Shown one piece after another: positions 9,320 through 38,891 of a DNA stretch of 39,471 bases. The number at the start of each line of letters is the position of its first letter. Positions within the stretch are counted from its first letter, which is position 1. Source of the DNA: Escherichia phage vB_EcoM_SHAK9454; sequence record OR594184, one strand, 5' to 3'. A program made the translations under genes and the position numbers. The notes below the pieces were generated by a model. The model did not search any database. It was not told where the DNA came from and was given only the letters and a program-made list of their open reading frames with translations.

Positions 9320-10363
9320 ATGACAACTATTAAAACCAACCCGCACCGCGCTGTAGATTACTCTGAGTCAGGCGTTAAGAAAGCACTGGAAGCAGCCGGG
9401 TCGCTGGAAGCTGAAGTGAAATATGACGGTGTGCGGTTGAATATTCCGGTCTTCCCTGATGGGCGAACTGAATGGTTAAGCCGTGAGTCAAAGACGCTTC
9501 CGGCCTTAGACCATTTGTCAACAGTTGGTCAGGACATCGGAGCGTGCCGTGCGTCCGACTGGCGATGGTTCCTGAAGCAAGCAGGACATGAGGTATCTGG
9601 CCTGATGATTGATGGCGAGGTAATGGTCAAGGGTGCAGACTTCAACACGTCCTCAGGTCTTATCCGAACGAAGTGGACCAAGAAGACCAACGTTGATTGG
9701 CACACAGACCCGATGGCCCCAGCTAAAGTACCATTCTGTCTGGACCAGAAGTTCATCCAAGTGGTCGTCTACGGGGTCATCGACCTCAACGTCATCCTTG
9801 ACCCGAAAGCCGAAGGTCCTATCCATAGCGTCACTCGCCTGAAGGCCGAAGCTATCGTACCTCTCCTCCAGAAATACTTCCCGGAAATCGACTGGGTTCT
9901 GTCTGAGTCACACACGGTCTATGACCTTGAGTCGCTCAACTCCCTGTACGAACAGAAGCGTCTGGAAGGACATGAGGGTCTGGTAGTAAAGGACCCACTG
10001 GGTAAATATAAGCGCGGCAAGAAGTCAGGCATGTGGAAGATGAAGCCTGAGGAGACCATCGACGGGACCGTGTGTGGCCTCGTGTGGGGGACTCCGGGTA
10101 AGGCCAACGAAGGTAAGGTGATTGGCTTCGAGGTGCTGCTTGAGGATGGCATGGTGGTTAACGCCTGTGGTCTGTCTGAAGAACAGAAGGACGAGTTTAC
10201 GGAAGCCTGTAACACTGATACATATATTCTCGGTGGAATCAATCCGTACGAAGGATGGCAGTGTGAAGTACTCTTCATGGAGCGGTTCCCAGATGGATCC
10301 CTTCGTCACCCTAGCTTCAAGTGCTGGCGTGGAACGGAAGATAACCCAACCGTTAAGAGTTAA
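9320..10363 (+). CDS. ATP-dependent DNA ligase (T7 gene 1.3-like)
   Basis: 347 aa; adenylation motif KYDGVR; position after gene 1.2. Confidence 0.92.
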   Translation: MTTIKTNPHRAVDYSESGVKKALEAAGSLEAEVKYDGVRLNIPVFPDGRTEWLSRESKTLPALDHLSTVGQDIGACRASDWRWFLKQAGHEVSGLMIDGEVMVKGADFNTSSGLIRTKWTKKTNVDWHTDPMAPAKVPFCLDQKFIQVVVYGVIDLNVILDPKAEGPIHSVTRLKAEAIVPLLQKYFPEIDWVLSESHTVYDLESLNSLYEQKRLEGHEGLVVKDPLGKYKRGKKSGMWKMKPEETIDGTVCGLVWGTPGKANEGKVIGFEVLLEDGMVVNACGLSEEQKDEFTEACNTDTYILGGINPYEGWQCEVLFMERFPDGSLRHPSFKCWRGTEDNPTVKS

Positions 10364-11372: not shown

Positions 11373-11531
11373 ATGACTGACGTAGAGAAGAAATACATCG
11401 TGGAACTTGAGGGACGTACCCAGTCCTTCGAGGTTCCGTTGTACGCAAAGTCTCTTGAAGAGGCTACCCTGAAGTCCCAAGAGTATGAGGACGCTGGGTT
11501 TGTGGTCGGACGGATTCGCCCTGAGACCTAA
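11373..11531 (+). CDS. Host RNA polymerase inhibitor (T7 gene 2-like), 52 aa
   Basis: GGAAGGAG then ATG 11373; [14 protein letters not shown]...[10 protein letters not shown] matches recalled T7 Gp2 SFEVPIYAETLDEA...AGFEVTRVRP; below the track cutoff. Confidence 0.75.
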
Positions 11532-11549
11532 ACTATCACTGTAGGACAG
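11527..11549 (+). promoter_or_regulatory. Phage RNAP promoter variant (phi2.5-like), A to G at -3
   Basis: CCTAAACTATCACTGTAGGACAGA. Confidence 0.6.
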
Positions 11550-11589: not shown

Positions 11590-12288
11590 ATGGCTAAAGA
11601 GCAACTGAAGACTTTCACCACTCCGGTAGCTGGTATCGTTGAGCCTTACGCATGGCTGAACAAAGCAGACACCAAGTTTAACGAGCGTGGTGAGCATAAG
11701 GTTAACCTGACATTCGACCTGAGCAACCATAAGGTCCGTAAGATGATTGATGTCTTACAGAAGATTCACGACGATGCGTATGCAAAAGCACTCGCAGACC
11801 ACGAGAAGAACCCACCTCAGGTTCAGCGTGGCAAGAAGCCTATTGAACCACGAGAAGGCGACATGCCGTGGATTGAGAATGGTGACGGTACTGTTACCCT
11901 TAAGTTTAAATGCTTTGCGTCTTACCTGAAAGACGGCAAGTCCGAGCCTATCGTATTACGGTTCTACGACACCGATGCTAAACTCATCCGTGACGTCCCG
12001 AATATCTGCGCTGGGTCTAAGCTGAAGGTCAAGTTTAAAGTCCTGCCGTTCAAGTGGAACGCTGCGACTGGTGCAAGCGTTAAGCTTCAGCTTGAGTCCT
12101 GCCTTCTGGTAGAACTGAAGGAGTGGAAAGGCGATGGTGCTGGTGGCGATGGTGGCTGGGGTGATGATGAAGACCTTGGTACTGGCTACAAAGCGTCAAC
12201 CGTTGGTGACTTCGGTGACGATGACTTCGGTGACGATGGTTCCGAAGGTGGTGACGACTCCAACTCTGGTGGCGATTACGACTTCTAA
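11590..12288 (+). CDS. Single-stranded DNA-binding protein (T7 gene 2.5-like)
   Basis: 232 aa, same length as T7 gp2.5; acidic C-terminal tail ending DYDF; GKKP..EGDMP and VKLQLES blocks. Confidence 0.92.
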   Translation: MAKEQLKTFTTPVAGIVEPYAWLNKADTKFNERGEHKVNLTFDLSNHKVRKMIDVLQKIHDDAYAKALADHEKNPPQVQRGKKPIEPREGDMPWIENGDGTVTLKFKCFASYLKDGKSEPIVLRFYDTDAKLIRDVPNICAGSKLKVKFKVLPFKWNAATGASVKLQLESCLLVELKEWKGDGAGGDGGWGDDEDLGTGYKASTVGDFGDDDFGDDGSEGGDDSNSGGDYDF

Positions 12289-12734
12289 TGAAACTTAAAG
12301 AGAAACTGGAGGCTTACTCTGAGGTTTCTCCTAGTGGATGCTGGGAGTGGCAACTCTCCCGGTTTCCTGCTGGATATGGTCGAATATCAATAGGACGTCA
12401 GAAACAGGACTACGCTCACCGAGTTTCATACAGGGAGTACAAAGGTCCAATACCTGATGGATTGGTTGTTAGACATAAATGTGATAATCCCTGCTGCTGT
12501 AACCCTGAGCACCTTGAACTAGGTACGCAGAAGGACAACATGAGGGACTGCATGGAGCGAGGACGAAAGTCTAATCCTCCCGTATTCAAAGGAGAAGCTA
12601 ATCACAAGACTAAGCTGACCAAGGAAAACGTAGAGTTCATCTTAGAGTCTATGCTACCAGCTATAGAACTAGCCAAGATGTTTGGAGTCACACCAGCGGC
12701 TATAAACTGGAGGAGACAACATGGCTGGACGTAG
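12288..12734 (+). CDS. HNH homing endonuclease
   Basis: CWEW...GYGR...HRVSY...HKCDNPCCCNPEHLELGTQKDN motif; codon usage richer in ATA/AGA/AGG than neighbours. Confidence 0.8.
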   Translation: MKLKEKLEAYSEVSPSGCWEWQLSRFPAGYGRISIGRQKQDYAHRVSYREYKGPIPDGLVVRHKCDNPCCCNPEHLELGTQKDNMRDCMERGRKSNPPVFKGEANHKTKLTKENVEFILESMLPAIELAKMFGVTPAAINWRRQHGWT

Positions 12735-13173
12735 CATAAGCAGAGGGCATCAAGTAGGAGCCTACCGCTCTGGACTTGAAGCAAAGAACCAGGAGTGGCT
12801 TGAGAAGAATGGAGTTAAGGCTGATTACGAGGCTTATAAGATAGGCTACGTAGTCCCATCTAGCGATCATTTTTACACGCCGGACTTCGTTTTACCTAAC
12901 GGTATCATCGTGGAGACCAAAGGTATCTTCGATAGTGATGACCGCAAGAAGCACCTTCTGGTACGAGAACAGCACCCAGAGTTAGACATCCGGTTCGTGT
13001 TCTCAAGTTCCCGCTCCAAGTTATACAAAGGGTCTCCGACCACGTATGGCGCATGGTGCGAAAAGAACGGCTATAAGTATGCCGATAAGTTCATCCCGGT
13101 TGAGTGGCTGAGAGAGGCGACTGTACGTCTGCCCTCAGGTATACTCATCCCCAAGAAGAAAGGAGTTAAGTGA
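12721..13173 (+). CDS. Endonuclease I, Holliday junction resolvase (T7 gene 3-like)
   Basis: YTPDF.LPNGI.VETKG...DDRKKHLL.REQHPELDIR.VFSSSR.KLYKGSPT.YG matches recalled T7 gp3. Confidence 0.92.
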   Translation: MAGRSISRGHQVGAYRSGLEAKNQEWLEKNGVKADYEAYKIGYVVPSSDHFYTPDFVLPNGIIVETKGIFDSDDRKKHLLVREQHPELDIRFVFSSSRSKLYKGSPTTYGAWCEKNGYKYADKFIPVEWLREATVRLPSGILIPKKKGVK

Positions 13174-13625
13174 TGACTCGTAAAGCAATCATCGTTGACC
13201 TGATGGATGGTGATGCACATTCAGACAACTACAAGGCAGGACAGGAGGTCTTCGTTAAGTTCTACCATAAGTCACTCAACCCTAGTGATGGAGACCTGTG
13301 GCAGGTGTCGCATGATGGTGTCAAGTGGCTGGCCTCAATGTATGGTCGCCGCCTGAAGTTTATAGATGCTGGTGATAAACCTCAAGTCCTGCCAGCCTCA
13401 AGCGTCCCTCCTGTCACCGTTAAACGTGAAGTCCTGACCATCAACAAGATTGGTGTAGGCCAGACGTTCATCGTCCATGGAAAGCCTGAAGAAGTTTACG
13501 TGAAGATTAGCAACTCACACGTCTTCAACCATAAGCATCTCCAGATGCACACCACGGACGCACAACGCTTCACCCAGCACCTGAATCTGGTGGTCGTAGA
13601 ATTGGTGGTGTACAATGGTAAGTAA
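13173..13625 (+). CDS. Hypothetical protein (150 aa) inserted between endonuclease I and lysozyme
   Basis: AGGAG 13161-13165 then ATG 13173 overlapping the endonuclease I stop (TGATG); no recognised motif. Confidence 0.65.
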   Translation: MTRKAIIVDLMDGDAHSDNYKAGQEVFVKFYHKSLNPSDGDLWQVSHDGVKWLASMYGRRLKFIDAGDKPQVLPASSVPPVTVKREVLTINKIGVGQTFIVHGKPEEVYVKISNSHVFNHKHLQMHTTDAQRFTQHLNLVVVELVVYNGK

Positions 13626-14073
13626 GGTACAGTTCAATCCACGGTCCCGGACCGACGCTATCTTCGTTCACTGTTCGGCTACCAAGCCAGAGATGGACAT
13701 CGGGGTAGAGACCATCCGTATGTGGCACAAGCAGCAAGGCTGGCTGGACGTAGGCTACCACTTTATCATCAAGCGCGATGGTACTGTGGAAGAGGGACGC
13801 CCGGTCAATGTCGTAGGGTCACACGTTAAGGACTGGAACTCACGGTCTGTAGGCGTCTGCCTTGTAGGTGGAATTGACGCTAAGGGCAAGTTTGAAGCTA
13901 ACTTCACTCCGGCCCAGATGAACTCCCTGCGCAACAAGCTGGCTGACCTGAAGGTCATGTATCCTCAGGCAGAAATCAAAGCACATCATGACGTAGCACC
14001 AAAGGCGTGTCCAAGTTTCGACTTGCAACGCTGGCTGTCTACCAATGAACTGGTCACTTCCGACCGAGGCTAA
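13615..14073 (+). CDS. Lysozyme, N-acetylmuramoyl-L-alanine amidase (T7 gene 3.5-like)
   Basis: TDAIFVHCSATKP...GWLDVGYHFIIKRDGTVE...HH.VAPKACPSFDL.RW...ELVTSDRG, near-identical blocks to recalled T7 lysozyme. Confidence 0.95.
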   Translation: MVSKVQFNPRSRTDAIFVHCSATKPEMDIGVETIRMWHKQQGWLDVGYHFIIKRDGTVEEGRPVNVVGSHVKDWNSRSVGVCLVGGIDAKGKFEANFTPAQMNSLRNKLADLKVMYPQAEIKAHHDVAPKACPSFDLQRWLSTNELVTSDRG

Positions 14074-16082: not shown

Positions 16083-16514
16083 ATGAGGACTTGCAGTAGA
16101 TGTGGCTCTACAAAGGAGTCCACTGAGTTCAGGAAGACAAATGGGTGGTGCATATCCTGTGTTCGTGAGGATAATAGGTCGCGATATCATCGAAACAAAG
16201 GTACAGAGGCCGGTGAGGCGCATCGCTTATCTGCCCGTAAGTCTTGGCTTAAGAAAGCCTATGGTCTCACACTTGAGGAATATGACACTATGTTCGATAG
16301 TCAAAAGGGCAGATGCGCTATATGCTCAGACATTATCTTCAAGCATGGGTCTATTGAGAGTAAGAATAATGTAGCCCACGTTGACCATTGCCATGACTCG
16401 GGTATTGTTAGGGGATTGCTATGTGGTACATGTAATAGCGCACTTGGTAAGTTCGGTGACAAGGTAGCCGTGCTTAGGGCTGCTATAACGTACTTGGAGA
16501 AATATAATGTTTAA
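16083..16514 (+). CDS. Endonuclease VII-family (T4 gp49-like) nuclease with N-terminal zinc ribbon; homing-endonuclease-like insert
   Basis: CAIC...HVDHCHDSGIVRGLLCGTCNSALG matches the recalled T4 endonuclease VII motif HLDHDH..G.VRGLLC..CN; N-terminal CSRCGS...CISC; AT-rich codon usage. Confidence 0.8.
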   Translation: MRTCSRCGSTKESTEFRKTNGWCISCVREDNRSRYHRNKGTEAGEAHRLSARKSWLKKAYGLTLEEYDTMFDSQKGRCAICSDIIFKHGSIESKNNVAHVDHCHDSGIVRGLLCGTCNSALGKFGDKVAVLRAAITYLEKYNV

Positions 16515-38436: not shown

Positions 38437-38631
38437 ATGATTGAGTTAGACTTCAAGAATGAGGTCCTTAAAGCCTCTCCTATCGTCGGGACCGCTGCGG
38501 CTGATGGTGCCAGTCGGTTCTTCTTCGGACTTACACTGAACGAATGGTTCTACGTTGCAGCTATCGCGTACACCGTTGTCCAGATTGGTGTGCTAGTCTA
38601 TAAAACGATTAAAGGAGGTGGTAAAACATGA
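38437..38631 (+). CDS. Holin (T7 gene 17.5-like)
   Basis: ASPIVGTAAADGASRFFFGLTLNEWFYVAAIAYTVVQIG near-identical to recalled T7 gp17.5. Confidence 0.92.
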   Translation: MIELDFKNEVLKASPIVGTAAADGASRFFFGLTLNEWFYVAAIAYTVVQIGVLVYKTIKGGGKT

Positions 38632-38891
38632 CGCAGATGGACTTAGAGAAGTTCCTCTTGATGCTTGATACTGAGCGTGCTCGACTTATGCTGCAAGACT
38701 TGCGGGATGACACTAAGCGTTCACCTCAGCTCTACAACGCCATTGAGAAGCTGCTTGCTCGTCACAACTTTGTGATAAGCAAGGTGTCTGTTGACGAGAA
38801 GACGCTGGCTGATATGGAGGCCCTGAACGCAGAGTACGATAAGGTGCTTTCAGCGACTGAGGATAATGACACCGGGTATGGCGTTCAATAA
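38628..38891 (+). CDS. Terminase small subunit (T7 gene 18-like)
   Basis: 87 aa; ATG overlaps the holin stop; position before Rz and the terminase large subunit. Confidence 0.88.
   Translation: MTQMDLEKFLLMLDTERARLMLQDLRDDTKRSPQLYNAIEKLLARHNFVISKVSVDEKTLADMEALNAEYDKVLSATEDNDTGYGVQ

Follow-up and report, generated by a model that had tools for sequence, protein, structure and literature searches.

Described relatives of the locus

T7-like phages commonly carry HNH homing endonuclease genes as passengers. Among these, gene 2.8 of T7 (Teseptimavirus; 139 aa) occupies the slot between gene 2.5, which encodes the single-stranded DNA-binding protein (SSB), and gene 3, which encodes endonuclease I. 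Numbered along the T7 locus, gene 2.5 ends at 900, gene 2.8 starts at the 2.5 stop and runs from 901 to 1320, and gene 3 starts at 1301. A preprint (bioRxiv 10.1101/2025.09.07.674715) regards gene 2.8 as a homing endonuclease gene that the phage can do without, and a literature search on gp2.8 and its relatives turned up neither a mapped cleavage site nor a demonstration of homing.

Two further systems bear on the locus described here. I-HmuI (PDB 1U3E) is an HNH nicking endonuclease from Bacillus phage SPO1 and is encoded within an intron. Free-standing phage endonucleases cut at sites outside the gene that encodes them, and markers in the flanks are co-converted (PMC2988022); in T4, the enzymes SegF, SegG and MobE, associated with 'intronless homing' and localized marker exclusion, are likewise encoded between conserved genes and are sporadic in distribution.

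The window analysed here is the whole 39,471-nt sequence of Escherichia phage vB_EcoM_SHAK9454 (OR594184), a complete, circularly permuted Kayfunavirus genome (K1F-like, Autographiviridae/Studiervirinae) with all of its genes on the + strand; its nearest GenBank genomes are ~95% identical. The ORF at 12288–12734 is most likely a free-standing gene for an HNH homing endonuclease, a member of the T7 gene 2.8 family, and is carried in a mobile cassette of ~610 nt. The slot is the same as in T7, and the overlap with gene 3 is 14 nt in SHAK9454 vs 20 nt in T7. A tblastn search against T7 aligned 94% of the protein's length at 39% identity (E 5e-21) to 9858–10232, annotated as gene 2.8. Both proteins have the motifs HxCDN...CCNPEHL...N and a C-terminal helix-turn-helix (HTH), whereas gp2.8 lacks about 10 linker residues present in the SHAK9454 protein. 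Identity to T7 gp2.8 is only 39–43%, and the SHAK9454 gene therefore belongs to a different lineage of the family. The initial annotation, which had described an HNH homing endonuclease at this site, missed its membership in the T7 gene 2.8 family.

The likeness to I-HmuI consists of the same domain order and the same H...N...N variant of the motif, at 17% identity; I-HmuI lacks the Cys/His cluster, and the SHAK9454 enzyme is free-standing rather than intron-encoded. That the latter might nick rather than cut both strands is only an analogy. The T4 enzymes belong to a different phage family with different recombination machinery, the Seg enzymes being of the GIY-YIG type, and their cleavage and marker exclusion have been demonstrated, whereas both are putative for the SHAK9454 protein.

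The element is thus already of a known kind. A ~98% identical copy, annotated as 'HNH homing endonuclease', is present in phage TM1 (QNH91728.1; 98% aa identity, 3 substitutions) in matching position and with matching overlaps, and public assemblies include a 100% identical protein (P0001). Phages PE3-1, JSS1, pO91, Penshu1 and TH20 are 77–83% identical in nucleotides across the HNH gene and its gp3 junction. For the proteins of these five phages and TM1, no experimental characterisation was found in the literature. Added here are the extent of the cassette, a linked allele of gp3, a deletion remnant in phage ZG49 and a narrower candidate target region.

Junctions, expression signals and codon usage

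The HNH ORF (12288..12734, + strand; T7 gene 2.8 type, activity putative) is intact, encodes 148 aa and runs from an ATG at 12288 to a TAG at 12732–12734. On its left is gp2.5, the SSB (11590..12288, +; Pfam SBB_T7, E 1.1e-71), which also provides the left homology arm. On its right is gp3, endonuclease I, a Holliday junction resolvase (12721..13173, +; Pfam Phage_endo_I, E 6.8e-76), whose start at ATG 12721 was confirmed via homology to T7 gp3. Downstream of gp3 follow an ORF at 13173-13625 (+), then the gp3.5 amidase and the gp4 primase-helicase. The overlaps with the SSB stop and the endonuclease I start claimed in the initial annotation proved exact. On the left, the stop and start share a TAATG (12286..12290, +) in which the HNH ATG takes its A from the SSB stop, so that this motif marks the exact left boundary of the insertion; on the right, the ORF overlaps the gp3 start by 14 nt.

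In relatives with an empty site (LM33_P1, 22664BS1 and phiYIO1-1) the gp2.5 stop and the gp3 start overlap in a single TAATG that couples them, which implies that the HNH ORF took over the translational coupling signal of gp3. The 33 nt upstream of this motif are identical between SHAK9454 and 22664BS1, and gp2.5 is 96–100% identical to HNH-less relatives as far as the stop codon. Inside the 3' end of the HNH gene lies a Shine-Dalgarno sequence for gp3, GGAGGAGA (12709..12716, +), 4 nt upstream of the ATG at 12721, and this 3' end gives gp3 a new strong ribosome-binding site. The HNH-B cassette of phage HC13, which belongs to a second lineage in the same slot, has an equivalent: AAGGAGAG. Because the insert reuses the coupling signal and supplies gp3 with a ribosome-binding site, neither essential neighbour is disrupted.

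A phage RNA polymerase promoter of a 10-copy family (core CTAAACTATCACTATAGG) lies upstream of gp2.5 at 11525..11547 (+), and the next copy is at 14067. A search with the promoter family found no copy within 12288–12900, and the HNH gene therefore lacks a promoter of its own; the idea of one inside the cassette was rejected, since the phage promoters on either side of the unit are those at 11525 and 14067. The HNH gene belongs to the transcription unit of the gp2.5 promoter. An intron-encoded homing endonuclease of the group I type was also considered and rejected, given that the flanking genes gp2.5 and gp3 are both complete ORFs and there is no intron RNA: in a search of the whole genome with Rfam families, including group I introns, nothing scored above threshold.

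The codon usage of the ORF is atypical, as had been claimed for ATA, AGA and AGG. These three codons make up 10/148 (6.8%) of the HNH ORF, 2 of the 10 (AGG AGA, 12711–12716) belonging to the gp3 Shine-Dalgarno, vs 161/11652 (1.4%) across the remaining 46 ORFs (Fisher p 5.7e-5). Five of the six isoleucine codons are ATA. In a control of 626 length-matched windows of 148 codons, drawn from the 13 ORFs that are 250 aa or longer, the maximum count in any core-gene window was 6 vs 10 in the HNH ORF, so that none came close. Third-position GC (GC3) is 0.45 in the ORF vs about 0.55 elsewhere, and a CAI-like score places it third lowest among 47 ORFs. Several small early or accessory ORFs show comparable codon bias, and for that reason the bias is by itself no proof of mobility. 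The rare codons would reflect a foreign origin of the gene, and they probably hold its expression low.

Occupancy of the slot and the linked gp3 tract

The case for mobility, which the initial annotation drew from codon usage, is supported by the distribution and structure of the site as well. A contiguous empty junction is present in 184 GenBank phage records, the HNH-containing region is covered in 7 of 223 related records, and only about 7–10 GenBank relatives carry this HNH lineage (A). The gene is thus neither core-like in its codons nor universally present at the site, and the exact insertion at TAATG, the linked gp3 tract, the remnant in ZG49, the discordant distribution and the use of the same slot elsewhere all point to a mobile insert.

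Other occupants of the slot are known. The second lineage, HNH-B, is present in four records (HC13, UFJF_EcSW4, Emlis and Midid) and is about 40% identical, and a third lineage is found in KM02; in one alignment the HC13 and KM02 proteins were 37–42% identical to the SHAK9454 protein, which makes them roughly as distant from it as T7 gp2.8 is. Over 24.8 kb the closest genomes to SHAK9454 are empty-site phages (6925, HC12 and LM33_P1) or HNH-B phages, and TM1, which carries HNH-A at 98%, falls outside the best 25 genome-wide relatives. The distribution of the gene is therefore discordant with genome-wide relatedness.

Beyond Kayfunavirus, insertions at the gp2.5 stop/gp3 start occur in Teseptimavirus, Teetrevirus, Berlinvirus and Klebsiella phages, and homologs of 62–83% identity sit in the same slot in Berlinvirus PP74, where the overlap architecture is also the same, in Teetrevirus SH1 and in Klebsiella, Serratia, Pantoea and Shigella phages. 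In a survey of IMG/VR by gp3, 14 of 80 loci were Kayfunavirus-like and the remainder, from other genera, were all empty at the slot; these other-genus loci served as empty-site partners for SH1 and for Klebsiella phage K74. Across genera the HNH protein is conserved at 62–75% (aa), the SSB at 42–49% and lysozyme at 72–75%. The excess of HNH over SSB conservation hints at transfer but no more, since conservation is just as high for gp3 and lysozyme.

The cassette extends beyond the gene. Immediately downstream of the HNH stop lies a foreign tract in the 5' part of gp3 (12735..12900, +), recognized by its reduced identity to empty-site genomes and a candidate for either a co-conversion tract or a cleavage-resistant allele. 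Overall the tract covers about 170 nt at about 60% identity vs 97–100% in the flanks. By interval, identity is 0.50 (12721–12760), 0.95 (12761–12800) and 0.60 (12801–12900); it is 96–100% up to TAATG on the left and 0.97–1.00 beyond 12900. At the protein level, 13 of the first 58 residues of gp3 differ from the HNH-less allele and residues 61–150 are identical. The GC3 of the tract is 0.47 vs 0.62 in the rest of gp3, a low value that matches the composition of the HNH gene. From these alignments the mobile cassette is best drawn as ~610 nt (12289–~12900), larger than the annotated ORF. The extension of ~170 nt past 12734 had been missed in the initial annotation. On its own the HNH gene of SHAK9454 matters little and its value is chiefly practical: an annotated ORF boundary that understates the mobile unit is relevant to gp3-based phylogeny and to phage engineering at this junction. 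A search for the donor of the tract returned nothing above ~73% nucleotide identity outside Kayfunavirus (Pectobacterium phages PP74 and PcCB251).

The N-terminal allele of gp3 was linked to the state of the site in 23/23 Kayfunavirus-like genomes, a sample that is phylogenetically non-independent and includes duplicates (e.g. L005 = L009). All 13 empty sites have the allele ...NQQWLEQ...ESHYINYVIPASDHKY..., and all 10 occupied or remnant sites have ...EAYKIGYVVPSSDHFY... or ...EMYKIAYTIPQSLHSY.... Twenty alignment columns separate the two groups, and all fall within 12732–12873; over the other 300 nt of gp3 no fully diagnostic column was found among the 23 genomes. The right-hand endpoint of the tract varies among occupied genomes (about 12876, about 12900 and further). 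The one-sided pattern recurs independently in two further genera. Against the empty-site locus L024, Teetrevirus SH1 shows a 100% identical SSB, about 500 nt of foreign gp3 and then 100% identity again, and against empty-site L030, Klebsiella phage K74_evo1 shows about 170 nt of foreign sequence followed by 100% identity. In both, the left boundary falls exactly at the gp2.5 stop and the flanks are 95–100% identical.

This pattern is consistent with co-conversion, and the one-sidedness of the tract fits the model developed for the Seg and Mob enzymes of T4. The allele linkage could nevertheless have arisen when a mosaic block was exchanged by ordinary homologous recombination, with no conversion driven by an endonuclease. 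On this view the gene has long occupied the 2.5/3 slot of Studiervirinae, no longer drives its own transfer or never did, and is shuffled among phages at conserved islands and repeatedly lost. Such passive exchange would agree with the finding that at least five genera, that of T7 among them, have homologs in this slot, with tract boundaries that coincide with highly conserved sequence (the acidic tail of gp2.5 on the left and a PNGI(I/F)VETKG motif on the right), with a second, unrelated mosaic segment directly downstream (13170–13400), and with the reassortment of HNH lineages and gp3 alleles, all four combinations of which were seen. It sits poorly with the intact catalytic residues and purifying selection described below, with a foreign tract that in three genera is strictly one-sided and begins at the insertion point, and with the lack of any empty site bearing an 'occupied' gp3 allele save the deletion remnant. 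One-sided tracts together with perfect allele linkage are the pattern predicted by endonuclease-initiated conversion, and we consider passive shuffling improbable as the full account.

The remnant is found in ZG49, which has lost 391 nt from the HNH gene through an in-frame internal deletion lying between the imperfect repeats GTGGATG (12334–12340) and CTGGACG (12725–12731). Its 169-aa 'endonuclease' starts with MKLKEKLEAYSEVSPGGC, which corresponds to HNH codons 1–18, fused in frame to gp3, and it retains a gp3 allele of the occupied type. With this deletion alongside occupied and empty sites, gain, maintenance and decay of the element are all represented.

Protein fold, selection and the proposed route of spread

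The identification of the protein as HNH held up, with a match to Pfam PF13392 (HNH_3; E 2.5e-17, 62.7 bits vs a cutoff of 24.8) that spans the full 46-position model at aa 42–86. The description of its motif as 'classic' did not, as the catalytic motif is the I-HmuI-type H-N-N variant (H63, N72 and N84) with a Cys/His cluster and not the colicin type. The protein also matches 11 PHROG HNH/endonuclease families (best E 5e-36). Across 43 homologs C18, Y30, G31, H44, R45, H63, C65, D66, C70, P73, H75 and D87 never vary, and N84 almost never does. In alignment with I-HmuI (1U3E), H63 corresponds to the general base H75 and N84 to the metal ligand N96.

An AlphaFold2 model (pLDDT 86.5 overall, 93–97 over aa 1–80) together with Pfam delimits an N-terminal beta-rich region plus HNH (beta-beta-alpha-metal) nuclease domain at aa 1–93 (12288..12566, +), whose predicted core consists of strands 59–63 and 76–80 and helix 81–90. 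A flexible linker follows at aa 94–110 (12567..12617, +; pLDDT 52–59, and <50 at aa 99–105), its length varying among homologs, and then, in the model and by Foldseek, a putative DNA-binding domain of three helices with an HTH at aa 111–148 (12618..12731, +; helices at aa 112–120, 125–132 and 136–145). The top PDB match in Foldseek was I-HmuI (1u3e; prob 0.99, 143 columns including the C-terminal HTH), and the remaining matches were HTH or homeodomain proteins. The TM-score of this match is low (0.36) because the two domains are joined by a flexible linker and differ in inter-domain orientation. A sequence search of the PDB gave I-HmuI as its sole, marginal match (E 0.73), so the evidence for the relationship comes from the Pfam profile and the predicted fold. 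The model thus describes an I-HmuI-like protein of HNH domain, linker and C-terminal HTH.

HNH folds are also known in non-homing roles, and the C-terminal HTH would suit a catalytically dead DNA-binding protein or a terminase-associated packaging cofactor like gp74 of HK97. Conservation of His63 (general base) and Asn84 (metal ligand), with an invariant Cys/His cluster, argues against a dead enzyme. The terminase genes (1-1731 and 38628-38891, +) are both ~10 kb from the HNH gene, and a gene absent from most relatives cannot be an essential packaging factor. We regard this pair of readings as very unlikely, and the HK97 gp74-type assignment was rejected on the grounds that the gene is not adjacent to the terminase genes and is missing in most relatives.

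The gene is conserved in sequence, with dN/dS of 0.06 against TM1, 0.21 against L013 and 0.13 against PP74. Values of 0.06–0.21 place the protein under purifying selection and indicate, at the level of sequence comparison, that it is functional. There is some reason to think that selection acts through a benefit to the phage, namely interference competition, in which competing co-infecting phages are cut, or the blunting of a break-sensing host defence, an effect reported for other HNH homing endonucleases of phages, selfish spread being secondary; such a benefit would be compatible with homing. The strength of purifying selection points in this direction, as does the fact that this one slot maintains three HNH lineages or more. 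A preprint (bioRxiv 10.1101/2025.09.07.674715) adds that T7 deleted for genes 2.8, 3.8 and 7.7 loses in competition with wild type, but only when the GAPS4 defence is present, and that HNH proteins without catalytic activity continue to attenuate GAPS4. Interference competition mediated by an intron endonuclease is documented for phage PhiPA3 (PMC11620839). However, the gene is absent from about 94% of related phages, ZG49 has deleted its copy, and T7 is viable with gene 2.8 deleted; moreover, the GAPS4 tests used T7_3.8 and the triple deletion, and nothing in them is assigned to gp2.8 alone. Maintenance chiefly for phage benefit is accordingly a minority possibility.

For the preferred reading, a homing endonuclease gene in a mobile cassette, we infer cleavage, a target site and homing by the HNH protein as follows. 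During co-infection, the enzyme would nick or cut genomes that lack the HNH gene, either at the empty junction itself or slightly downstream, which puts the break in the final part of gp2.5 or within the opening ~180 nt of gp3. Recombination enzymes of the T7 type (gp2.5, gp3 and gp6) would then repair the break from the HNH-containing genome and would copy the HNH gene together with the adjacent 5' segment of gp3. Because it is diverged, the copied gp3 segment is presumed to be uncleavable and would protect its carrier. Copies of the gene would later be lost through deletion, as in ZG49. The diagnostic differences at 12732–12873 narrow the likely target to the empty junction and the first ~150 nt of gp3, and the specificity of the gp2.8 family thereby becomes directly testable.

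A more speculative extension, which we hold only tentatively, is that the gp2.5/gp3 junction of Studiervirinae is a contested homing site at which at least three HNH lineages (A, B or HC13-type, and KM02-type) displace one another, the occupied gp3 alleles serving as immunity alleles and carriers gaining an advantage via exclusion or GAPS4-type attenuation. If so, HNH genes and gp3 alleles would reassort because each enzyme targets the allele of the other as well as the naive allele, and the immunity alleles would sit in gp3, an essential resolvase gene. As for the third lineage, the KM02 gene is annotated as a 90-aa fragment, and its frame is open over the full length upstream with no ATG.

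HNH homologs within and beyond the gp2.5/gp3 junction

A third HNH lineage occupies the junction between the gp2.5 (SSB) stop and the gp3 (endonuclease I) start in Escherichia phage KM02 (PQ179042.1; positions 1081-1518 of locus L006), its product being 37-38 per cent identical in amino acid sequence to the HNH protein of the window, and the adjacent gp3 5' allele is of the same diverged type as that in the window. Counted from the SSB stop, ∼145 codons of the KM02 frame are open, with no ATG upstream, although the annotation gives a 90-aa fragment; this copy may have a start codon other than ATG, or it may be in decay. In Escherichia phage ZG49 (KX669227.5) the junction carries a chimeric 'endonuclease' gene (L005:1200-1706) in which HNH codons 1-18 are joined to gp3, giving a 169-aa endonuclease I extended at its N-terminus. 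Another, downstream CDS in the same record also carries the label 'endonuclease I'.

Three Klebsiella-type IMG/VR loci (L033, L037 and L045) have an empty gp2.5/gp3 junction and encode a distant HNH_3 homolog (31-35 per cent amino acid identity) ∼1 kb upstream of it, at about 1262-1492 in the early region. Homologs of 39-46 per cent identity are found at still other sites in the Kayfunavirus phages LNA5 and Ro45lw, and these differing locations together indicate that the HNH family has colonised several positions in Studiervirinae.

Other mosaic and nuclease segments

Directly downstream of gp3 lies a second mosaic segment (13170-13400), comprising the 5' half of ORF 13173-13625 (phrog_16385, unknown function). 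Identity across this segment is 30-48 per cent to TM1, LM33_P1 and 22664BS1 and 96-100 per cent to phiYIO1-1. The HNH site of phiYIO1-1 is empty, so this segment and the HNH cassette assort independently of one another.

The window has a further small nuclease ORF, of 143 aa (16083-16514, plus strand; Pfam Endonuclease_7, E = 1.4e-24; PHROG endonuclease VII), which overlaps the start of the DNA polymerase gene directly downstream. ATA, AGA and AGG make up 7.0 per cent of its codons, a rare-codon bias like that of the HNH gene. Coverage of at least 80 per cent of this region is limited to 4 of the 129 related GenBank records. Given this sparse distribution, the ORF probably represents one more mobile nuclease cassette of sporadic occurrence. 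Homing endonucleases with an Endo VII motif have been documented, F-CphI being an example (PMC6083498).

Promoters and probable genome ends

The phage RNA polymerase promoter family, with core CTAAACTATCACTATAGG, is represented by ten copies between 1824 and 36063 of the window (at 1824, 5458, 8779, 11525, 14067, 20156, 22995, 23982, 28765 and 36041). A 193-nt sequence is present as two exact tandem copies at 2424-2809, most likely the direct terminal repeats of a T7-like genome joined head-to-tail, in which case the window would be an assembly of the whole genome that is circularly permuted or spans a concatemer junction.
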